From: a virus
Length of the DNA: 64,000 bases
Direction: 5' to 3' (one strand)
Virus record (IMG/VR): IMGVR_UViG_3300031857_000018
Span: 64,001-128,000 of that record
Part shown: piece by piece, positions 38,069 to 59,470 of the stretch
How positions within the stretch are numbered: the stretch's first letter is position 1
Layout of the letters: every line of letters starts with the position of its first letter
The notes under the pieces: generated by a model
The model's database searches: none
What the model was told of the DNA's origin: nothing
The model's input: only the letters and a program-made list of their open reading frames with translations
Made by a program: the position numbers and the translations under genes

Positions 38069-38521
38069 TTACTCTTCTTCGTCGGTCGGTGTAAACTCCG
38101 TAAACCCGATGGTTAATGTGTGGCCCATTGACCCGTCCCAACCCGGTGCTGGTTGATCGTCGTCAGCTTCCTCCTCGTCAGCTTCCTCGTCCTCCTCAAG
38201 CACAAACTCTGCTACTACTGCTTCCACGTGACTCATTATTTCATAGATGTCAATGTTAACCTCAGTGAGCTCGATGCGGTTGTCATAGTTAATCTCAAAG
38301 CACGCGCTGTCTTTGTCGATGATCGAGTCGCTATTGTAATCCAACGCTCTTTGGATCTTGTCGCCGATGGTTGCTGCGAGGTCCTCAGTGATCCCAAACA
38401 CTTTGACTGTCTTTTGCTCCGCCTCCAACTGCTGGATAAGCTCGATCACTTTGTCAATGTCAACTTGTGAAGACAACGCCTTTGCTCCTTCTAACTGTGC
38501 AATTAAATTTTCTTTTTTCAT
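38069..38521 (-). CDS. Early acidic hypothetical protein
   Basis: Own promoter; D/E-rich. Confidence 0.7.
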   Translation of the reverse strand: MKKENLIAQLEGAKALSSQVDIDKVIELIQQLEAEQKTVKVFGITEDLAATIGDKIQRALDYNSDSIIDKDSACFEINYDNRIELTEVNIDIYEIMSHVEAVVAEFVLEEDEEADEEEADDDQPAPGWDGSMGHTLTIGFTEFTPTDEEE

Positions 38522-46156: not shown

Positions 46157-47245
46157 TTATTCATAGTTCCTGATTGCCGTTACCTTCGGGAAGCGTGGCT
46201 TTCCATCCGGTGTGATTTGAAAATACTTAACCGTTGCTTGCTGACCAACCAACGTGTCTCGCTCTGCCCACAATTCTTTGAGATACTCCCAACCGCCATT
46301 AACCGATGCTGTGAAGCGATCTCCGATGGCTGTTTCAAATACTAAGGCACCTACCATTCCTGACAGGTTGCCGTTGCCTTCTTCATATCCGACAATAGTA
46401 TACTCTTCGTCTGTGAATGATTTGTGTTTCATCAGTGACTTGGATCTTTTGTTTTCATAAGGTGCATCTAACCGTACCATTTGTCCTTCATATCCTGCAG
46501 ACATATACTCATTGTATAATTCCATTAACTCAGTTTCAGATTCAACAAAGTCTGTAAACACAACCACACAACACGCCGGCAATGACATTTTATTCAATGC
46601 TCCGTTCCTAACGGAAAATGGTGTATGGTGTGATGGTAGATCATATACATGATATTGGATAACCGCGGCGCTGTCAATAAGATCCTGAGCCGTTGGTTTT
46701 GTCTTTTTAACTAGGGACACAATGGCATTAAAATCATTTGCATACTTATCCGCATACAACTCTCCGTCTAGGATCAACTCCGGATCGGCTTCAAACAATG
46801 GCTTTAGGCCTTCGAAGATGTGTGGTGCTGAAATGATAGGTTTACCTGCTCTGGTCCACATACCATCGGCACGAACAATGCAACGAATGCCATCCAGCTT
46901 AGGTTGTGAATACACAGGGTATTGTACTTTGTCTGCGAAGTCTTCCCATTTGTGGGCAAGCATTGGCTTGAACATTGTGCCGCTATCTACTGCTGCAGCA
47001 TCGGCAAAGTAGCCACGCTCGGTGCGCTTCTTCCATTCTGCTTTGGCTTCTGTTAAGGCTTGTTCCTCCGGTGAGGACTCATTCACTTTGCCAATGTTCT
47101 TGGCTTGGCAGAAGGTCCATTCGGTTGTGGTGATTGCTCCGTCAACATATCCGGAGTGAGTGCGGTAAGCATCGCCCATTACTTCGATGGTGTGCTCGAG
47201 TAATTTACCTGTGGTTGCTCTTTTGTACAAGGTCTGTAATTTCAT
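46157..47245 (-). CDS. lig: ATP-dependent DNA ligase
   Basis: PMLA, motif I QPKLDGIRC, LDGELY, YHVYD, YEGQMVR, KRSKSLMK.K and PRFP. Confidence 0.93.
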   Translation of the reverse strand: MKLQTLYKRATTGKLLEHTIEVMGDAYRTHSGYVDGAITTTEWTFCQAKNIGKVNESSPEEQALTEAKAEWKKRTERGYFADAAAVDSGTMFKPMLAHKWEDFADKVQYPVYSQPKLDGIRCIVRADGMWTRAGKPIISAPHIFEGLKPLFEADPELILDGELYADKYANDFNAIVSLVKKTKPTAQDLIDSAAVIQYHVYDLPSHHTPFSVRNGALNKMSLPACCVVVFTDFVESETELMELYNEYMSAGYEGQMVRLDAPYENKRSKSLMKHKSFTDEEYTIVGYEEGNGNLSGMVGALVFETAIGDRFTASVNGGWEYLKELWAERDTLVGQQATVKYFQITPDGKPRFPKVTAIRNYE

Positions 47246-51557: not shown

Positions 51558-52270
51558 ATTATTTCATTTGTTATGTTATCCCATTCAAAGTGCCATGGTT
51601 CCTGTGCATAATTGTATCGTTCATTCAACACTGCTGCATTGAAGTAGTGAGTGTGACCATCGAAGTAGTGTCCGTATCCTGAATGAATATGCCCACATAC
51701 ATGTATCTTGGGACGTATAGTTTCAATACGCTTTGCCAATAACTCACAACCTAAATGCTGACCTCTTCGGCCTTCTACATCATCCAAGAAACCCCAAGCA
51801 GGCCCATGTGTCACTAGTATATCAATGTTGTCAGGAATATCATTCCACTTTTGTTCCAACTCCCAACCATCGCGTGGCAAGTTGAATGCCCAATCATAAA
51901 ACCAAGGTTGCCATGGCGAACCATATATGCGAACATTTTCTTCTGGCATATCGCCATTTGCACCATCATTGTATACTCCTAACCAATCATCTTCTAGGTA
52001 CTCGATAGTCTTGTAACCTGTTAGTATGCCTTTTGCCTCTTCAGGCGCATCTTGCATCCATCGGTCATGATTGCCGGCAATGAACACTTTGGTGTCATAG
52101 CTGTTAAGTTGATCCAACCACTTGAAGAACATCATCGCTTCAGTTGGACTATATCCTGATGTCATGAAGTCTCCGGCATGGATCAGAATATCGCCACCTG
52201 GAAGATCTTTACTTAACAAGTCATGCTTTGCGTGGGTATCTGATATTAATGTTATTTTATATTTTGCCAT
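51545..52270 (-). CDS. Metallophosphoesterase
   Basis: SDTH, HAGD, AGNHD, THGP and CGHIH motifs. Confidence 0.9.
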   Translation of the reverse strand: MAKYKITLISDTHAKHDLLSKDLPGGDILIHAGDFMTSGYSPTEAMMFFKWLDQLNSYDTKVFIAGNHDRWMQDAPEEAKGILTGYKTIEYLEDDWLGVYNDGANGDMPEENVRIYGSPWQPWFYDWAFNLPRDGWELEQKWNDIPDNIDILVTHGPAWGFLDDVEGRRGQHLGCELLAKRIETIRPKIHVCGHIHSGYGHYFDGHTHYFNAAVLNERYNYAQEPWHFEWDNITNEIIWQR

Positions 52271-52274
52271 ATTC

Positions 52275-52793
52275 TTATCGTGTTATACCTAGGTCTTTAA
52301 GACTCTTTGGCGTGTAATTAACTTGTTCACAGGATACACAAATATATCGTCGGTCTACTCGGTTGAAAATAGTTCGACCAAATAGTTTAACTGGTACCTC
52401 AACCACCTTTTCGTGTATGTGACCGTGTATGTTGTATTTAATACGATAATCCATTTCCATTGGGTGAACTGGGCAGTGTGTCAGGAAGATGCCTTTATAC
52501 TGCACCATACCGGCAAGGTAGTCAACATGCTCTAACATTTTACGGGAGTGGTTGGGCTTGTCGTGGTTTCCTCCCACTACTATCTTGCGACCGTTAAGAC
52601 GATCCAATATATCATAGTTCGCCTTTTCCATTGTTACATCCCCTAAAATATAGGTAATATCGCGTTTGTGTACCGTTTTGTTCCATTGCTGCGCGATAAA
52701 CTCGTCTTGTTCGCCTGCTGAGGCGAATCCTCGATGCTTTGCCATGTTCTCATGACCAAAGTGCAAGTCTGCTATGAATCGTACTGTACTCAT
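52275..52793 (-). CDS. Metallophosphoesterase (calcineurin-like)
   Basis: ADLHFGH, LGD, GNHD, THCP and HGHIH motifs. Confidence 0.9.
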   Translation of the reverse strand: MSTVRFIADLHFGHENMAKHRGFASAGEQDEFIAQQWNKTVHKRDITYILGDVTMEKANYDILDRLNGRKIVVGGNHDKPNHSRKMLEHVDYLAGMVQYKGIFLTHCPVHPMEMDYRIKYNIHGHIHEKVVEVPVKLFGRTIFNRVDRRYICVSCEQVNYTPKSLKDLGITR

Positions 52794-52838
52794 TTTCTTT
52801 TTCTTTAATATAAGAATAAAAAATGAAACATCCTAATA

Positions 52839-54821
52839 TTATCTGAACAATGTTACATGCCCGTGCAACATGGACTTTCCATCTGTGTCAGGATCGCCAT
52901 ACGTAACCATGTAGAAATAAACTCCATCTTGGCACATCCTGCCTTGATATGTTCCATCCCATCCTGCATTTGCATCATACGACTGCCAAATGAGTTGTCC
53001 CCAACGATTATAGATAGTGAGCTCGAACTCATACGGATCGAAGCCAGAAGTAAAAACGGGTTGCCACATGTTGTTATATTCATCGCCATCCGGTGTAAAC
53101 GTGTTAGGAATGAATATCAAAGTCTCTGGACATTGTGATACAGTTACCGATGCAGTCTGAGTATTAGATATGCACCCATTTGCATAATATGTTACAGATA
53201 CCGTATTCACGCCTTCCATGCTCCACGTTATGGTTTCATTCAATGTGTTTTGCTGGATTGTGTCACCCATCCATATCCATTCATAGTAACCACCAGGCGG
53301 CGTGCTTTGTGCACTCCAAGTTATGTTTGTTATATCTAACTCACATAATTCATAGAATGCATTATATGGCGTTATAGAATCTAATACTGGTGTCGGATAC
53401 ACTGTAATTTGTATGACCGTATCAAACACACAACCGCTTTGCTGATATTCATATGTTATCGAGTTGGTGCCAACTGCTATGCTAGGATCAAACTGTACTC
53501 CGGTTACTCCGATTCCTGTGAATTGTCCTCCTATAGGTACTGCTGATAAATTAACAACATCATCATACTCACACAAAGGCGCCTGTGGTTGTATGACAGG
53601 ATCGATATTAAATATGAATAAATCAACTGCTTCAGTTAAACCGACGCACCCATTAAGCTCCGGCGTTACTTGCACTGCTCCTGGAATGAATCCTGGTGGT
53701 AATGCACTCCAATCCACCGTAATGCTATCTGTACCTTGTCCTGATGTGATAACACCAACCGCATCCCAAACAAATATAACTCCTGGTTGTGATGTTGTAA
53801 CATAACTAGCTAGGTTTGATTGCCAACAAATTGTGTCTGATGACTGTATTGGAGTGACAACGGGAATTGCAGTTCCAGGTAACACAAACACAGTGTCTGG
53901 TCCAGGTCCGACTGCGCCATTACATGTAGACCAACCTGCATTGCAAATTGGATAAACAAATCGACAAGTATACTGTGCTCCAGCGGCTGGTGGTGTTACT
54001 GTGATTGAAGCTCCAGTTCCTATAGGTGCTGCTACTCCTACTTGGTACCAAGTTAATGTAGGTGTAACCGTAGGTCCGTCAGGAGTCCAACGCCACGAAT
54101 CATTGGTTGCGGTCCACGCAGTTGAGTTTCGTCCTGGCACGGCTACTGCTGCAGTACCTGTTGCATTGTGTATGGCTTCAACGGCAGTACCACCCGACCA
54201 TTGCAGACAGGCAGGCTTGTTTTGTATATGGTTTTCAATCACATTGGTTGATTCGTATATTACTATGTGAAATGTTCCAAAGTTATTTGTGCATGAAAAC
54301 ATTGGTACTCCGATCCAACTCACTGTAAGTTTTCTACAAGGTGCAACTCCTGATACTTGATATCTTATTTGTCCACCTAGGCCAGGATGCCAATCCTGCC
54401 ACGGTCCCATGATACAATTTCTAGGGACTAATGCATTTACCGTTGGTACTGTTTGGGATGTAAACGTAGTAGGTTGTGCTGGGCTAAATGATATCCATCC
54501 ATTGGATCCTACGTAGAACTGAGTATAGGTTTGACCATAGAAACAAAACGTGAATCCTATATTAAAAGGACCTTGCTGTGAATCATCAGTCATTACCAAA
54601 TTAGTTCCTGTGTTAGTTTGTGCTGCATATGGAATGCTAGTAACTGCGTATGCTGTGGTTTGTTTTGGATTTGTCCCTGCTGCACATTGTGATAAATCTG
54701 CGGTCAATGTTGTTGATGCAACGCCACACGGTAATGTCTGATCAGGACCTAATGCCGGACAATACTGAGAATTAACTGTGCTAGCAGCTAGCAGTATTAA
54801 AAATGTAAATAAGTGTTTCAT
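52839..54821 (-). CDS. Secreted protein with T9SS type-B (gliding-motility-associated, CHU_C) C-terminal domain
   Basis: Signal peptide; C-terminal IFIPNTFTPDGD..N...TIYNRWG......GWDGTY.G.....GVYFY. Confidence 0.85.
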   Translation of the reverse strand: MKHLFTFLILLAASTVNSQYCPALGPDQTLPCGVASTTLTADLSQCAAGTNPKQTTAYAVTSIPYAAQTNTGTNLVMTDDSQQGPFNIGFTFCFYGQTYTQFYVGSNGWISFSPAQPTTFTSQTVPTVNALVPRNCIMGPWQDWHPGLGGQIRYQVSGVAPCRKLTVSWIGVPMFSCTNNFGTFHIVIYESTNVIENHIQNKPACLQWSGGTAVEAIHNATGTAAVAVPGRNSTAWTATNDSWRWTPDGPTVTPTLTWYQVGVAAPIGTGASITVTPPAAGAQYTCRFVYPICNAGWSTCNGAVGPGPDTVFVLPGTAIPVVTPIQSSDTICWQSNLASYVTTSQPGVIFVWDAVGVITSGQGTDSITVDWSALPPGFIPGAVQVTPELNGCVGLTEAVDLFIFNIDPVIQPQAPLCEYDDVVNLSAVPIGGQFTGIGVTGVQFDPSIAVGTNSITYEYQQSGCVFDTVIQITVYPTPVLDSITPYNAFYELCELDITNITWSAQSTPPGGYYEWIWMGDTIQQNTLNETITWSMEGVNTVSVTYYANGCISNTQTASVTVSQCPETLIFIPNTFTPDGDEYNNMWQPVFTSGFDPYEFELTIYNRWGQLIWQSYDANAGWDGTYQGRMCQDGVYFYMVTYGDPDTDGKSMLHGHVTLFR

Positions 54822-54849
54822 GGTAACCTTTTAAATAAATATGTAAAGT

Positions 54850-55200
54850 AAAAAAGCCCCGGAGTATTACACTGCGAGGCTTTAAATGTGTCAAGTTATC
54901 TGAGTGATAAGGAGTATAGACAATGTCAACGACTACGTCACTGTCAAAGACCTTCCTTGCAGCAAAGGCAAAGTCAAAAACTAAGTCTCGGTTTGTTAGC
55001 CAATTATCTTCTCGAGTAACCTGTCTAACGGTTGAGTTCTATCTCAGTTTTAAGTTTGCAAGGAAGCGGTAGTTTCTGAAGCGTAATCAACGCGAATTAA
55101 TGTAGTTTATACAATATCTTGCTATATCTATATGAAAACCCTACCACCCTGATACAAAAAGAAAGGGCTTTGGCTTGTGCTTCCGCCCTAACTTACCTTG
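54850..55200 (-). ncRNA. Putative structured RNA downstream of coiled-coil gene
   Basis: 10-bp perfect inverted repeat 54952-54961/55057-55066, internal hairpins, hexamer-periodic tract 54916-54987, terminator 54850-54883. Confidence 0.5.
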
Positions 55201-55201
55201 A

Positions 55202-56122
55202 TTATTTTGATTCTTTTGCGATGAACATATCAATTACTGGCTGGAATCTTTCCGGCACTGATATACGCCATGATGCGATATCATTGATTTGTTTTTCCAA
55301 TTGTTCTTGGAACTCAAATTTAGCTTTCTTTTCAGCCGCATACCATTGTTCTTTAAGAGTTTCAAACTCTGCCCAAACTGTATTGTTATGTGCCGTAGCC
55401 GTAGCCATTTCATCTGCATTCGCTCGGGCGATACGAGCATTCTCAGCCGTAACTAGGTTTTTAACCTTGGCTTTGAAATAATTAACTCGCTGTTCGAATT
55501 CACGGTGCATTGCTGCCAATTCTTCATGAATTTGAGCCAATGATGCCGGAGTGTGATGACAATGAACTTCTACTGGAGTCTTTTCTCCTTCTTTTACAGT
55601 AATCCATTCTAGAGATTTCATGTTAGGCAATTCTATGCGTAACGCGTCTAATTCTCCACCTCGGTGAATAAATTGACCTATATGACTTGCATACGCCTCA
55701 GCTTCTAGGTATTCATTGTATTCAGCAACTGAAAGTTGATCCCATCCCCAAGACTCATCAACTTGATCAATTTGATTATTATATTTTAATTCCGCGCGCT
55801 CTGGGAATGCAACTTGGTTTGTATAATCAAACTCCATGTTGCGTGTTACTTTAAGCATGGCATCCTTTGCACGGATATTCTCCATAAGGAATGCCTGAGT
55901 TGCGCTTAAGCGAGCTTTCTCTTGAAGCAATGCAACGATATCGGTTGGAATCGGATTAGCTGGTTGCTGAGTATACGTCTTGCCGTTAACAGTCACCGTC
56001 TTAGATGCATTGTTAATAATAGACAACCGATCCTTGATGTCACGCACTCTTTGGTTGCAAAGGTTGCTTACTGATTGAGCTTGTGATAGAGATAATCCGG
56101 TTGTTGCTAATGAATGTTTCAT
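55202..56122 (-). CDS. Long coiled-coil protein (weakly DIP1984-like N-terminus)
   Basis: 306 aa, helical heptads; own TTGGAA-type promoter. Confidence 0.7.
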   Translation of the reverse strand: MKHSLATTGLSLSQAQSVSNLCNQRVRDIKDRLSIINNASKTVTVNGKTYTQQPANPIPTDIVALLQEKARLSATQAFLMENIRAKDAMLKVTRNMEFDYTNQVAFPERAELKYNNQIDQVDESWGWDQLSVAEYNEYLEAEAYASHIGQFIHRGGELDALRIELPNMKSLEWITVKEGEKTPVEVHCHHTPASLAQIHEELAAMHREFEQRVNYFKAKVKNLVTAENARIARANADEMATATAHNNTVWAEFETLKEQWYAAEKKAKFEFQEQLEKQINDIASWRISVPERFQPVIDMFIAKESK

Positions 56123-56201
56123 GTTTTCCTTGTTTAATTGTTTAACTTAATTAATAATAAGATACTTAATTCTAATTTCCAAATGTTTTTTAAACTTTTT
56201 G

Positions 56202-56275
56202 CACGCCTGGATGGATTCGAACCACCAACACTCGGATTTGGAATCCGATGCTCTACCAATTGGAGCTACAGACGC
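56202..56275 (-). tRNA. trnW: tRNA-Trp(CCA)
   Basis: Cloverleaf; anticodon arm TCGGA-TTCCAAA-TCCGA; T loop GTTCGAATC. Confidence 0.93.
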
Positions 56276-56281
56276 ATTTTG

Positions 56282-56419
56282 TAGTCAGGACAGGATTCGA
56301 ACCTGTGTCTTTTGTTTCGGCCATGCGAGCTCATCTGCATGCTTAGGCTTTTTGTCTTCTCGGCTCCGGAACCTTACGACTGTAGCGTCACCTGATTGGC
56401 TACCAATTGCCACCTGACT
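56282..56419 (-). ncRNA. tRNA-like RNA with enlarged central insert
   Basis: Acceptor stem AGTCAGG/CCTGACT and T arm ACAGG-TTCGAAT-CCTGT intact; 138 nt with no canonical anticodon arm. Confidence 0.75.
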
Positions 56420-56430
56420 AACCGTTAAAA

Positions 56431-56637
56431 TTAATACTCTCGGCCCTCGAACAACTTAATCAATCGGTAATGCCATTCTGCAGGAAAATCTGCGAGTCTG
56501 GAACTACTCTTTGCTTGTTGATGTGCCTCTTTTCTTGTCGTCGCCTCTACTATACGGTAGGGCGCTTGGTATCCATTTCTGTGACACCATTCCACTCTCC
56601 AAAGTGGATACTGTGCTTGCGCTTTCATAATGATCAA
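56431..56637 (-). CDS. Hypothetical protein within the tRNA cluster
   Basis: IVEATTRKEA pattern; start uncertain. Confidence 0.5.
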   Translation of the reverse strand: MIIMKAQAQYPLWRVEWCHRNGYQAPYRIVEATTRKEAHQQAKSSSRLADFPAEWHYRLIKLFEGREY

Positions 56638-56690
56638 TGATCATTGTCAGCCATAAGAATTGAGCATGTTACCCTTGTTTATTAATTTAG

Positions 56691-56773
56691 TACTCGGAGC
56701 GGGACTTGAACCCGCACGACCAATTGGCCAACAGATTTTAAGTCTGTCGTGTCTACCATTCCACCACCCAAGC
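56691..56773 (-). tRNA. trnL: tRNA-Leu(TAA)
   Basis: ACAGA-CTTAAAA-TCTGT anticodon arm; long variable arm; discriminator A. Confidence 0.93.
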
Positions 56774-56845
56774 AAGTGCCTGTCTTTCCAGGCTGTACAA
56801 CAAGGATATTCTTTGCGCATTAAGGACTCTCTTGTGCTTCCTTTG

Positions 56846-56919
56846 TACTCCTAGCAGGACTCGAACCTGCAACGCCTAGATCCTAAATCTAGTGTGTCTA
56901 CCAATTCCACCATAGAAGC
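56846..56919 (-). tRNA. trnL: tRNA-Leu(TAG) with short variable loop
   Basis: CTAGA-TTTAGGA-TCTAG anticodon arm; Leu-type D arm; 5-nt variable loop. Confidence 0.85.
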
Positions 56920-57093
56920 TTGAGCGTAGTGGGACTGCAGATCCCTGAGGCTCCTACGCAAGTTGTTCCTCTTTATGCCGGCGCCGCTCCCTGCACGGGA
57001 CTTGTACTTTGTCCTATTAAGCGTTTATGCAAAAGACACATCCTGGTACGCCGACCTGGGTAACCCAAATCCAATGCGTGATGTGTACTTTAG

Positions 57094-57165
57094 TAGTCCC
57101 ACGGAGAATCGAACTCCGATTTCTAGGATGAAAACCTAACGTCCTAACCGTTAGACGATGGGACC
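57094..57165 (-). tRNA. trnE: tRNA-Glu(TTC)
   Basis: TTAGG-TTTTCAT-CCTAG anticodon arm; GTCTAACGGTTAGGAC D arm. Confidence 0.93.
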
Positions 57166-57210
57166 ATAAATAAGAATGGCGTTTAAACCTTGCGTACCAG
57201 CTACCATTCT

Positions 57211-57369
57211 TTATTCTTTACTTCCTGAGTGTATCAAAAAGTCTCGATACTCGTCATTCTCCAATTCACATAACCGATCCAAGCAAGCATCATACGAGCC
57301 GGTTTTCAATATGCGGCCGGTGTAATCAACCAATAGCCAAACATCAGGACCAAATTTGATAATTTCCAT
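57211..57369 (-). CDS. Hypothetical protein (52 aa, not in ORF track)
   Basis: Manual translation MEIIKFGPDVWLLVDY...; TAGGAC-N17-TATATT promoter heads the tRNA operon. Confidence 0.5.
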   Translation of the reverse strand: MEIIKFGPDVWLLVDYTGRILKTGSYDACLDRLCELENDEYRDFLIHSGSKE

Positions 57370-57415
57370 CTCTTTATTTTTATAATATAAATATAAGAAA
57401 TAAAAACCAAAAGTC

Positions 57416-57817
57416 CTAATCTTTCTGCAACATTTTTTCTACTCGATTGCGAGCCTTCTCACCTAATGGTATTGGATGACCTTCTTCATCGATATGCACG
57501 AACTTGATGTGTGTGCGAAGCACTATAACCTGATTGCCCGTGTATACATTGTGTGCTCTGGCTTCCATGTACAGGTTGATGGATGAGTTACCTATTGCTT
57601 GTGGCTGACCATATATCTTAAGTAGTTGGCCTTCCCGGGCTGGCTTCTCAAAATTGCATTTGTCAATGCTAACCGTAACCATACGGGGTGTATCACAAAG
57701 TTGCATTGAGTAGCCGGCTGCAGCTGCATCGATCCAAGCCAACAGCTTTCCTCCGAACAGGTTGCCATGAAACCCTAGGTCGGATTTCTTGATTGGGTGT
57801 GTGTTTAGTAATTCCAT
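57416..57817 (-). CDS. Acyl-CoA thioesterase (hotdog fold; start reassigned to 57817)
   Basis: D...HGNLFGG.LL.WID.AA, VTVSID...F.KP, GNSS and FVHIDEEG.P motifs. Confidence 0.88.
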   Translation of the reverse strand: MELLNTHPIKKSDLGFHGNLFGGKLLAWIDAAAAGYSMQLCDTPRMVTVSIDKCNFEKPAREGQLLKIYGQPQAIGNSSINLYMEARAHNVYTGNQVIVLRTHIKFVHIDEEGHPIPLGEKARNRVEKMLQKD

Positions 57818-58146
57818 TATTCCACTGTTTTCTCTACGTATGTGCAAGTCTCACCTGCATCAAATCCTTTTTCTAATAGCAAGGGCAGGGAAGCTGGCTT
57901 GCACCAAGCATACACCAAGTACCCTTTGAATCTTTGCTGCACATACTCCCAACGGGCGTCCCACAGCATTCGAAAGATTCCTTTGCGACGATGGTCTTCA
58001 TGTACCCAAGCATCTAGGAACTTGATGCGTTGTGTTTCTTCTCGTTCCATGTAGATGTGTCCTACAATGTCTCCGTTTACCATGGCGATCCAGGTTTCAA
58101 GTCGTTGAGCATTGCTTTTAAGATGTACTATTTTAATGTCTTCCAT
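57817..58146 (-). CDS. GNAT acetyltransferase
   Basis: WVHEDHRRKGIF (motif A), SLPLLLEKGF. Confidence 0.85.
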   Translation of the reverse strand: MEDIKIVHLKSNAQRLETWIAMVNGDIVGHIYMEREETQRIKFLDAWVHEDHRRKGIFRMLWDARWEYVQQRFKGYLVYAWCKPASLPLLLEKGFDAGETCTYVEKTVE

Positions 58147-58149
58147 AAG

Positions 58150-58974
58150 TTAATGTATTCGTTTTAATATGTCACTTAATCGGCTATACATTTCTACTGC
58201 TATCGGTACTGACATCAGTGCAATAAGAAAATTGTTTACATACGAGTATACTGTAATCACACTACCAATTGTAACATGTTGGGTTGTAAGTACCAACACT
58301 ATGATCGACGCAAACAAAAATATGTTTTTAATCATCATGATGAGAAACCAATTCTTTCCTTGCAGAGTTGATTGGAATATCTCTAGTTGGCGCCGGCGAT
58401 TAAAAAACAGCACTGAGGCATCATATCCAGCTTGTATAGCGTCTCCTTTGCGTTCATAATGTGTGTTCCTCAGTTTGATTGCCTGCTTTATTTTGCTGTA
58501 TAGTAAGGTTACAGCAGCAAGTATCATCACGAATGCAATACTAACCAACACACCAACCTGCCAATTTTCTGAGTAAATAAACCCGATGGATCCTACGATT
58601 GTAACAATGGTTGCGATATAGTAATGCACATATCCTTCCAATACATTAACAATATCATGGGCCATATCTGTTCTAGCAATTTTGGTTGATGCATCATGAT
58701 GCGGTTGCCGCAGAAATCGAAACACGATGCTGTTGTATATTCGAGTGTACACTTTGGTATCATACACCATTCGTTTATAATTAAAAAATGCAGATAAGAA
58801 ATATGAGGTTCCTAACAGCACCAACCAATGCCATGTGCCACTCATCAGGCCGTCAATGCTTTTACCAAGCAGAAATGGTGTTGCTAGATTAGACAGCTCG
58901 GTGACGAGCATGAACAAGTAAATGAATGATAGCTGGCGTCGATGCTGTTTGAATATCTCATAAATTTTATTCAT
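58150..58974 (-). CDS. ABC-transporter six-TM-domain protein (no ATPase domain)
   Basis: P.LLG.SIDGL, RMVYDTKVYTRIY; six hydrophobic helices. Confidence 0.7.
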   Translation of the reverse strand: MNKIYEIFKQHRRQLSFIYLFMLVTELSNLATPFLLGKSIDGLMSGTWHWLVLLGTSYFLSAFFNYKRMVYDTKVYTRIYNSIVFRFLRQPHHDASTKIARTDMAHDIVNVLEGYVHYYIATIVTIVGSIGFIYSENWQVGVLVSIAFVMILAAVTLLYSKIKQAIKLRNTHYERKGDAIQAGYDASVLFFNRRRQLEIFQSTLQGKNWFLIMMIKNIFLFASIIVLVLTTQHVTIGSVITVYSYVNNFLIALMSVPIAVEMYSRLSDILKRIH

Positions 58975-59470
58975 AGTTTAATTGATTAACGTCACTTTGA
59001 TCGTCGGGTATGCCGGTGAGTGAATATCTATCTTTATTTAGATCCGCAGCTAGTTTAGTCTTAATAAACTGCTCCTCGCCTACCGGATCATATATGTTCC
59101 CTTGCGAATCTCGTACCCAGTAATGCGGAATAAACTTCCATTGATCAGCATATTCGCTAGTCTCAATCCACTGTTTTCTATCGTTAGCATCATTCCAATT
59201 CCCACCATCCGAAATAAACTCGCGTTTCATTTCTTCAGTGAAGTCAGCTTTATCGTATACGACTGAATCCGCCTTAAAATATCCTTCTACGCGATTCAAT
59301 TCTTGCGCCCCATGTTTTGTCAAAAACTGCATAAAACTCAACGCAGCAGGACCACAATTATCTCTTTTGCAGAAGTACTTCAGTTCCTTAGGACTTACGG
59401 TTTGTTTCCACTGAGCAATAAGACTCTCTGGCGATGCTGTCTCTTTCAATAAATCTTTTAATCGTATCAT
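58967..59470 (-). CDS. Putative internal head protein (MIRLKDLLKE tag), possible Cys-His-Asp hydrolase
   Basis: Tag and late motif; DNCG...HYWV.....IYDP...QF. Confidence 0.6.
   Translation of the reverse strand: MIRLKDLLKETASPESLIAQWKQTVSPKELKYFCKRDNCGPAALSFMQFLTKHGAQELNRVEGYFKADSVVYDKADFTEEMKREFISDGGNWNDANDRKQWIETSEYADQWKFIPHYWVRDSQGNIYDPVGEEQFIKTKLAADLNKDRYSLTGIPDDQSDVNQLNYE

Follow-up and report, generated by a model that had tools for sequence, protein, structure and literature searches.

Introduction

On the minus strand of a large phage genome, a gene for a 306-residue protein is succeeded by 380 nt that seem to hold no further gene and in which short repeats recur every six nucleotides. 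What this spacer is, and what it has to do with the gene before it, is the question that the locus raises. The DNA analysed here (the window, 64,000 nt) comprises bases 64001-128000 of a 169,328-bp IMG/VR phage record. An earlier note on it, made from the letters and their reading frames, had proposed that the gene and the region behind it form a protein-RNA module.

Large phages of aquatic Bacteroidota are abundant, yet only a minority of their genes and hardly any of their RNAs have been explained. To our knowledge, phased arrays of single-stranded repeats are known from only a few well-studied regulators, such as TRAP and the RNA sponges of CsrA. We describe the spacer, its relatives and the protein encoded ahead of it, and weigh the readings that these data allow.

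Genomic setting

Nearly all genes of the window lie on the minus strand. In the order of transcription, the 306-aa gene is preceded by genes for a thymidylate synthase, an acetyltransferase-like protein and a 4HBT thioesterase and then, directly before it, by four tRNA genes (Table 1). On its 3' side the 380-nt spacer leads to a gene whose 660-aa product bears a type IX secretion signal (CHU_C), and this secretion (T9SS) cargo gene is succeeded by two metallophosphoesterases. The CHU_C domain of the 660-aa neighbour indicates that the host of the phage is probably a member of the Bacteroidota. The host could not be read from prophages, since a scan of one genome per species matched two metagenome-assembled contigs only.

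The unit is closed, as the earlier note had it, by an intrinsic terminator on the minus strand, a hairpin with a run of six U residues near 54881-54849, which a simple terminator scan overlooked because its loop is longer than 8 nt. Among the relatives described below, this terminator is seen only where the T9SS-cargo gene comes next. The gene 3' of the RNA differs from one relative to another, being either the secretion-cargo gene or a 172-aa phosphoesterase, which argues that the structured RNA belongs with the gene upstream of it.

Table 1. Features of the locus, with positions counted from the first base of the window
Feature	Position	Strand	Remarks
Four tRNA genes	57165-56201		Directly before the 306-aa gene in transcription order
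306-aa protein gene	55202..56122	-	Helical bundle with two beta-hairpins (model); no known family
Structured RNA, about 300 nt	54897..55194	-	Helices P1 to P2'; 50-sequence alignment, RNAalifold, pair counts, strand test
P1 hairpin	55159..55194	-	10-bp stem, 55194-55185 with 55168-55159
P2, 5' strand	55139..55154	-	Long-range helix closing the RNA
P3 variable hairpin	55081..55093	-	Alignments and constrained fold
P4, 5' strand	55057..55066	-	CUUCCUUGCA; always pyrimidine-rich
P5 hairpin	55033..55046	-	CUGAGAUAGAACUC; 50-sequence alignment and pair counts
P6/P7	54995..55029	-	GUUAGACAG pairs with UUGGCUAAC; short variable hairpin inside
Hexamer array 1	54963..54986	-	Four units: UAG, UUG, UUG, UUG; conserved GAGAC before
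P4, 3' strand	54952..54961	-	UGCAAGGAAG; always purine-rich
Hexamer array 2	54915..54950	-	Five units: UUG, GUG, UAG, UUG, UUG; invariant CUAUA after
P2, 3' strand	54897..54912	-	Conserved (R)ACU after
49-aa ORF	54923..55072	+	Judged a by-product of the repeats, not a gene
Intrinsic terminator	about 54849..54881	-	Hairpin AGCCUCG...CCGGGGCU and U6; ends the unit

The spacer specifies a structured RNA

Fifty distinct sequences were aligned for structure. RNAalifold returned three heavily covarying helices, and P5, P6 and P7 were added by eye from compensatory changes in the same alignment. Across the 54 pairs of the seven helices, 90.9% of cells were canonical, against 69.3% in shuffled alignments, and pairing was 41-51% when the 3' partner was slid by 1-3 columns as a control. 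Double changes were seen in 48 of the 54 pairs (38.6 in shuffles), and the covariation score of 0.686 (0.262 in shuffles) was reached by none of 500 shuffles. The RNA has the strand of the 306-aa gene and starts no more than about 10 nt behind that gene's stop codon.

The first helix, P1, shows double changes in all ten of its pairs, with 93% of cells paired. Its apex carries a conserved 15-nt sequence, UARGCAYAAGCYGAU, which includes a GC/GC mini-helix, and three conserved U residues come after the stem. A terminator-like hairpin had been proposed at 55156-55190; the hairpin is real, but rather than a plain terminator it is this integral, covarying helix with its conserved apex, and it may also attenuate transcription. 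The long-range helix P2 (16 bp) has double changes in 16 of 16 pairs and 93.4% of cells paired. Inside it, P3 is swapped for unrelated GC-rich hairpins in relatives.

P4 corresponds to the perfect 10-bp stem already picked out in the earlier note, an inverted repeat with CTTCCTTGCA at 54952-54961 and TGCAAGGAAG at 55057-55066. In P4, 98.7% of cells are paired, with double changes in 8 of 9 pairs. The first seven positions of its 5' strand are pyrimidines in 47-50 of the 50 sequences, and P4 shows compensations of the transition type only because these seven pairs keep a pyrimidine on the 5' and a purine on the 3' side virtually everywhere. At the site of P5, one clade has a longer, two-tier hairpin with the covarying combinations GUGG/CCAC, AUGG/CCAU and AAGG/CCUU. 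P6/P7 is illustrated by the pairs 263-405 (UA 26, CG 11, AU 4, GC 4) and 265-343 (GC 27, AU 10, UA 7).

Two further structural ideas were set aside. A switch in which strands of P1 and P4 would pair with each other gave no advantage when the energies of a sequence's own strands were compared with those of strands crossed between sequences, and the additional rod-like helices in the minimum-energy fold of the window were without support across the family.

The strand of the RNA was judged from wobble pairs. G-U cells numbered 166 and C-A cells 61, an excess of only 2.7-fold, and 87% of cells would pair on the opposite strand too; the G-U excess, the orientation of the gene and the U6 terminator on the minus strand together place the RNA sense on the minus strand.

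A search of positions 52000-59000 with Rfam 15 at E<=1 gave the tRNAs and a sub-threshold YrlA elsewhere, with no match at the RNA, and ten diverse loci searched at E<=0.1 gave tRNAs only. It is almost certain that this is a real structured RNA family, previously unclassified.

Two phased hexamer arrays flank the 3' strand of P4

The tract 54987-54916 on the minus strand (72 nt) consists of twelve in-phase hexamers, eleven of which begin with G and nine with GNC, exactly as counted in the earlier note. None of 2000 mononucleotide shuffles of the 380-nt spacer reached eleven (best in-phase G count 10 of 12, mean 6.2), and only two other places in the 64-kb window have an in-phase G in 11 of 12 hexamers. 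Information content in the family alignment has a clean 6-nt period. The unit that emerges from the family is NNN-U(U/A)G, a conserved U-(U/A)-G, itself with U mostly as its middle base, being succeeded by three variable bases; the GNC seen at first reading is explained by the third variable base, which is often C.

The units fall into two arrays, one on each side of the 3' strand of P4, and these are the best-conserved sequence of the RNA family. Matches to the RNA model in 200 loci provided 122 distinct 3' parts, of which 96 fit a strict pattern; within these 96, array 1 mostly has four units and array 2 mostly five. The two arrays are separated by 12 nt in 61 sequences and by 13 nt in 32. 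A search for the same array pattern in the rest of the phage genome showed no enrichment (8 matches, against 5 for a reversed control).

Several results bear on whether the arrays are paired. Constrained partition-function folding of the 50 sequences gave no consistent pairing partner for them, and no covariation at the level of the true helices was found between array columns and any other columns. Pairing with the 5' linker, with the segment before P4 and with J4/5 was tried and rejected, as duplex energies within a sequence were barely better than those between sequences (-4.7 against -3.8, -3.8 against -3.4 and -4.25 against -3.6 kcal/mol), whereas the true helices gave -14 within and -7 to -9 kcal/mol between sequences. 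A triple helix on the purine/pyrimidine P4 was also rejected, for want of covariation with the arrays and because the arrays are oriented in a way that does not suit the pyrimidine motif. A possible pseudoknot would join GAGAC to GUCUU hexamers, both sides being near-invariant, with only two of five variants compensated. Since U(U/A)G is itself near-invariant, covariation is blind to pairing of the arrays with a second molecule or with some other segment that does not vary. On these results the arrays are probably single-stranded, presumably also in vivo.

Could the hexamers instead be iterons of a DNA-level element, such as a replication origin, a packaging site or a structure of single-stranded DNA? 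Repeats are typical of origins, and folded single-stranded DNA tolerates G-T wobble just as RNA tolerates G-U. However, the site coincides with neither an inflection of GC skew nor a change of gene strand in the window, a 6-bp period does not place the sites on one face of the duplex, and the element keeps its place behind a single gene, on the strand that is transcribed. We therefore regard a DNA-level element as very improbable.

The periodicity is not that of a conserved peptide

The spacer wholly contains no minus-strand ORF of at least 30 aa with a start codon, in agreement with the earlier note; three short minus-strand ORFs (30-68 aa) reach into its two ends only. On the plus strand, the 49-aa ORF to which that note drew attention does exist, and it would account for the period if the repeats encoded a small basic peptide. 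An AAGGAG stands 7 nt ahead of its ATG at 54923, the close clade of the window keeps an in-frame ATG, and the changes within that clade look conservative (Ser, Thr, Ala).

However, the AAGGAG is the complement of the 3' strand of P2, which covaries as RNA. Both repeat frames are free of stop codons by construction, as the plus strand reads NCA + AAN and the sense strand UUU + GNN, and variation of N in the repeat gives Ser, Thr and Ala substitutions automatically. Furthermore, the C-termini of the plus-strand ORF differ even within the window's own clade, where indels of 7 and about 43 nt alter them. Only 23 of the 50 sequences have an ATG-started, opposite-strand ORF of at least 20 aa that overlaps the arrays, its frame differing between them and its length ranging over 20-93 aa, and a common reading frame across both arrays is broken by the 12- or 13-nt spacer. 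Reading the repeats on the same strand was rejected likewise, an ATG ORF being present in 10 of the 50 sequences only. A conserved start, frame and stop fail across the relatives, and the repeats are not due to a conserved peptide; a plus-strand peptide as the origin of the period is accordingly very hard to credit. The periodicity is thus non-coding, and the 49-aa frame is not conserved as an ORF; a translated peptide would, by the earlier note, have refuted its proposal.

The RNA is inherited with the gene upstream

The earlier note had held that its proposal would fall if the downstream region were not conserved with the gene. A protein-seeded set was assembled from 80 loci in IMG/VR and 11 close loci from other assemblies (91 in all). 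A spacer profile built on the close set matched 89 of the 91, always directly after the gene and on the same strand; the two loci without a match appear to be L024 and L062, both of which end at the gene. The matches hold at 44-56% protein identity. Spacers of close relatives share near-identical blocks, between which hairpins have been replaced and indels of 7 and about 43 nt occur, and at larger distances nucleotide identity is 74-76% in the RNA spacer against 63-66% in the gene. The RNA persists beside protein homologs of only 27-28% identity, where P2, P4, both arrays and CUAUA are kept, P5-P7 are reduced to one hairpin and P1 is lost or rebuilt.

The converse search, seeded with the RNA, gave the same picture. 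A pattern of array 1 alone gave 116 matches in IMG/VR, and 80 of these were inspected. The protein gene lies directly upstream in 69 of them; four are too near the end of their locus to judge (three of these match the whole-RNA profile), and seven are unrelated, being antisense to lysine-rich coding sequence and without a match to the RNA profile. The gene is therefore directly upstream in 69 of 69 genuine, informative matches. Contigs that carry the module measure from a few kb, these being fragments, to about 370 kb. Support is firm both for the RNA and for its link with the gene.

Another possible reading is a purely cis-acting 3'-UTR element, which would govern how stable the upstream mRNA is, how its 3' end is processed or how it is terminated, with P1 protective or attenuating, P2 a site for RNase III and the repeats without a dedicated partner. 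P1 indeed comes right after the stop codon with conserved U residues next to it, P2 at 16 bp is long enough for RNase III, and the varying downstream gene means that the RNA is no 5' leader. A stabiliser, however, could do without 300 nt of RNA and seven helices, and without nine phased U(U/A)G units as the most strongly conserved part of the molecule; moreover, distant relatives keep P2, P4 and the arrays but have lost or rebuilt P1. We consider a purely cis-acting role unlikely, though clearly less so than either a peptide or a DNA element.

The 306-aa protein is a predicted dimer of no known family

Relatives of the protein are numerous, with 2356 at E<=0.001 among the word-sharing candidates that were scored, and there are 427 clusters at 50% identity. 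Searches of Pfam, PHROG, NCBIfam and PADLOC assigned the 306-aa protein to no family. A weak resemblance of its N-terminus to DIP1984-type coiled coils had been suggested, but Pfam at E<=1 gave just sub-threshold Tup_N, XLF_CC and PTPlike_phytase, and across 64 members of the protein family it gave scattered weak matches only, with DIP1984 absent. A profile search of the PDB returned apolipophorin-like helical noise only (E 4e-4). Searched with tblastn, the deposited phage genomes had no match to the protein, and with the RNA region as query they matched just the cargo gene and tRNAs, the RNA being absent.

The AlphaFold2 monomer model is confident (pLDDT 93, pTM 0.86) and has two beta-hairpins besides its long helices, one of which spans 54 residues. 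Foldseek against the PDB found no convincing fold for this model (best E 0.04, TM about 0.2), BFVD an uncharacterised homolog only, and the ESM Atlas only unnamed viral and Bacteroidota clusters (TM 0.42); VIA-align against 48,161 chains gave a best Z of 7.8 with an rmsd of 7.6 A over 139 residues, to unrelated helical membrane proteins.

A two-copy model gave an ipSAE of 0.48, against 0.02 for the best control. The mark used for this dimer score, which the two-copy model passed, was reached by 20 of 30 proteins solved as one-chain pairs and by 1 of 23 solved as single chains. Contacts of the model agreed to at least 97% across three runs, the partner pLDDT was at least 86, and the modelled interface is symmetric and large, with about 200 contacts. 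This supports, without proving, a closed symmetric homodimer rather than a filament or ring, and a closed two-fold interface as modelled does not obviously fit nine tandem sites. Moreover, the protein is mildly acidic to neutral, with a pI of 5.8 in the window and a median of 6.4 across the family, and no RNA-binding domain can be recognised in it. A set of polar residues is conserved, namely N20, K86, H153, R162, H206, R207, E210, N214 and K217, the last seven of which make up a polar stripe.

That the upstream protein is not basic favours another account, in which the RNA would act in trans to decoy or soak up an RNA-binding factor of the host (of S1, RRM, KH, Rho or RNase type, for instance), merely riding on the transcript of a well-expressed gene whose product has an unrelated job. 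The arrays are multivalent, single-stranded by the criteria above and U/G-rich. Neither a TRAP (TrpBP, PF02081; B. subtilis control positive), nor a CsrA, nor an Hfq gene was found in the 169-kb phage record. Moreover, 37 of the 71 distinct loci include a tRNA gene, which in 12 lies upstream of the protein gene and in 19 downstream of the RNA, in either case at no more than 1.5 kb; such are the usual surroundings of stable phage RNAs. Mere hitch-hiking, on the other hand, predicts neither a linkage that holds down to 27% protein identity and in every informative RNA-seeded locus, nor a start of the RNA fixed within about 10 nt of the stop codon. A sponge of this kind is a tentative alternative, perhaps one chance in a few, and the strongest of those considered.

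Comparison with known RNA-protein systems

A close parallel to the arrays is the leader of the Bacillus trp operon, bound by TRAP (MtrB). There, too, about 9-11 triplets ending in G, separated by 2-3 variable bases and single-stranded, meet the many identical sites of one protein. The triplet differs, being U(U/A)G in the phage and (G/U)AG for TRAP; the 3-nt spacing of the phage repeats fits, but the middle base of their triplet is mostly U. The phage arrays are, in addition, split by a helix strand and set inside a 300-nt fold at the 3' end of a gene. The CsrB and RsmZ sponges of CsrA likewise show many short motifs on one RNA so as to titrate a dimeric protein, but their motifs are GGA in hairpin loops and the RNAs are separately transcribed, in contrast to the U(U/A)G repeats of the phage.

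In type III toxin-antitoxin systems (ToxI-ToxN), too, a protein gene and a repeated RNA stand side by side, and there they form a particle. ToxI, however, has 36-nt repeats placed before the toxin gene, against 6-nt repeats downstream of the gene here, and the phage protein has no Pfam or PADLOC match to an endoribonuclease of the ToxN/AbiQ type. TnpB and IscB with their omega RNA or reRNA provide another case of a protein gene beside a structured RNA with which it forms a particle; omega RNAs accompany RuvC nucleases and transposon ends, and with no Pfam or PADLOC match the phage protein corresponds neither to these nucleases nor to ToxN. GOLLD, ROOL and the pRNA of phi29 are similar in that phages carry them, that they are highly structured, that their role is unknown or structural and that they often lie near tRNA genes. 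At about 300 nt, the RNA described here is smaller than GOLLD and ROOL, and it occurs strictly with one protein gene; the Rfam library, which is expected to include both GOLLD and ROOL, gave no match to it.

Finally, a covariation screen of intergenic regions in IMG/VR reported 8495 candidate structured RNAs of 29-151 nt, with no named function (Fremin, Bhatt, Kyrpides 2023, PMC10690425). As these candidates come from the same sequence source, they may include single hairpins or parts of the present RNA; the main text of that report describes no full architecture, repeats or gene linkage for it. By comparison with these systems, we would see here a new family of RNA joined to a new family of protein, whose likeness to the known repeat-array regulators is one of design only.

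Discussion

The reading that we prefer is that the RNA would be a 3' extension of the transcript of the 306-aa gene, offering many binding sites to a protein, possibly the product of its own gene; as a whole, we give it a probability of about 55%. The RNA is read as the 3' part of the gene's transcript because across the whole family it starts so close to the stop codon that a promoter of its own is unlikely, and it may perhaps be cut free later at the 16-bp closing helix P2. In the fold, P1 comes first, succeeded by P2, which encloses P3 and P4, and P4 in turn encloses P5 and P6/P7. The unpaired arrays, usually of four and five hexamers, could then serve as a multivalent platform for a protein whose RNA-binding sites are repeated or multimeric. 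Multivalent binding is proposed because phased single-stranded motifs serve this purpose in the TRAP leader and in the Csr sponges, and we think it somewhat more probable than the contrary that the arrays bind a protein. Of the module first suggested, then, a conserved structured RNA tied to the gene upstream is established, and protein binding is what its design would suggest.

As to the partner, the unbroken co-inheritance of protein and RNA makes the upstream protein the first candidate. The dimeric protein made from the same transcript might assemble with the RNA into a particle or exert feedback on its own mRNA; its charge and the closed-dimer model temper this idea, and a sequestered host RNA-binding protein would be nearly as likely a partner. 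Although it leads the candidates, we think it less likely than not that the product of the upstream gene is the bound protein. A protein-RNA particle is plausible, if unproven. In its boldest form, the proposal would be a new phage ribonucleoprotein, in which dimers load in register on nine phased U(U/A)G hexamers of a scaffold RNA that is the tail of their own mRNA, with a regulatory, enzymatic or anti-host activity so far undescribed in phages. We offer this form as speculative, about as doubtful as the host-factor sponge.

The module is widespread, with thousands of protein relatives in metagenomes and an RNA core kept down to 27% protein identity. It joins a protein without recognisable fold to an RNA whose best-conserved part is a set of phased, short, single-stranded repeats, and so makes an RNA-protein pair that lends itself to clean tests. 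For RNA databases it is a new family, and for the group of phages that carries it a marker.

Genomic surroundings of the RNA

The structured RNA is followed on its 3' side, in the window and in CHU_C-bearing relatives, by the gene for a CHU_C (type IX secretion) cargo protein, and a terminator ahead of this gene was seen in the window and in all those CHU_C-bearing relatives for which the extract was long enough. Among the loci compared (L082-L092), L085-L090 have neither the cargo gene nor the terminator, and carry a 172-aa phosphoesterase gene directly 3' of the RNA. Gene and terminator together look like a variable inserted cassette, for which a single DNA match was found among deposited phages (68% identity over 758 nt), in the 634-kb uncultured megaphage LR745206.

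In some relatives a tRNA gene lies within about 30-40 nt 3' of the RNA (L213, about 1935-2015; L010, 4288-4360), and the mature RNA may therefore be released from a transcript that it shares with tRNAs.

Lysine-rich coding stretches of unrelated phage genes, read in antisense, likewise contain the pattern of array 1, one of the two hexamer arrays of the RNA (IMG/VR contigs L111, L125, L150 and L119, L135, L166), so that short-motif scans for the RNA need filtering with the whole-RNA profile. Outside the RNA, the window has just two stretches in which G fills 11 or more of 12 slots spaced 6 nt apart, 46319-46390 (-) and 38132-38233 (-). The latter, a run of about 100 nt, probably encodes a repetitive peptide, since it falls inside a 150-aa ORF (38069-38521).

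Just upstream of the tRNA-Trp gene, a tRNA-like element was observed in which about 85 nt take up the place of the anticodon arm. ARAGORN called no tRNA here, even with introns allowed, and Rfam yielded nothing beyond a Y-RNA-like match (YrlA, 56226-56331) whose 26 bits fall below the gathering score of 69.

Coordinates of the cassette and the tRNA-like element
Feature	Position	Strand	Detail
CHU_C cargo gene with preceding terminator	52839-54881	-	660 aa
tRNA-like element	56282-56419	-	
Acceptor stem	within 56282-56419	-	perfect pairing, AGUCAGG/CCUGACU
D-arm-like stem	within 56282-56419	-	
T arm	within 56282-56419	-	canonical, ACAGGUUCGAAUCCUGU

Conserved residues of the 306-aa protein

In the 306-aa protein (55202-56122, -), the conserved residues H153, R162, H206, R207, E210, N214 and K217 (region 153-217) adjoin the dimer interface of the predicted model, in which the final five of them share one face of the 54-residue helix. 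This set may represent a ligand, metal or nucleic-acid site.
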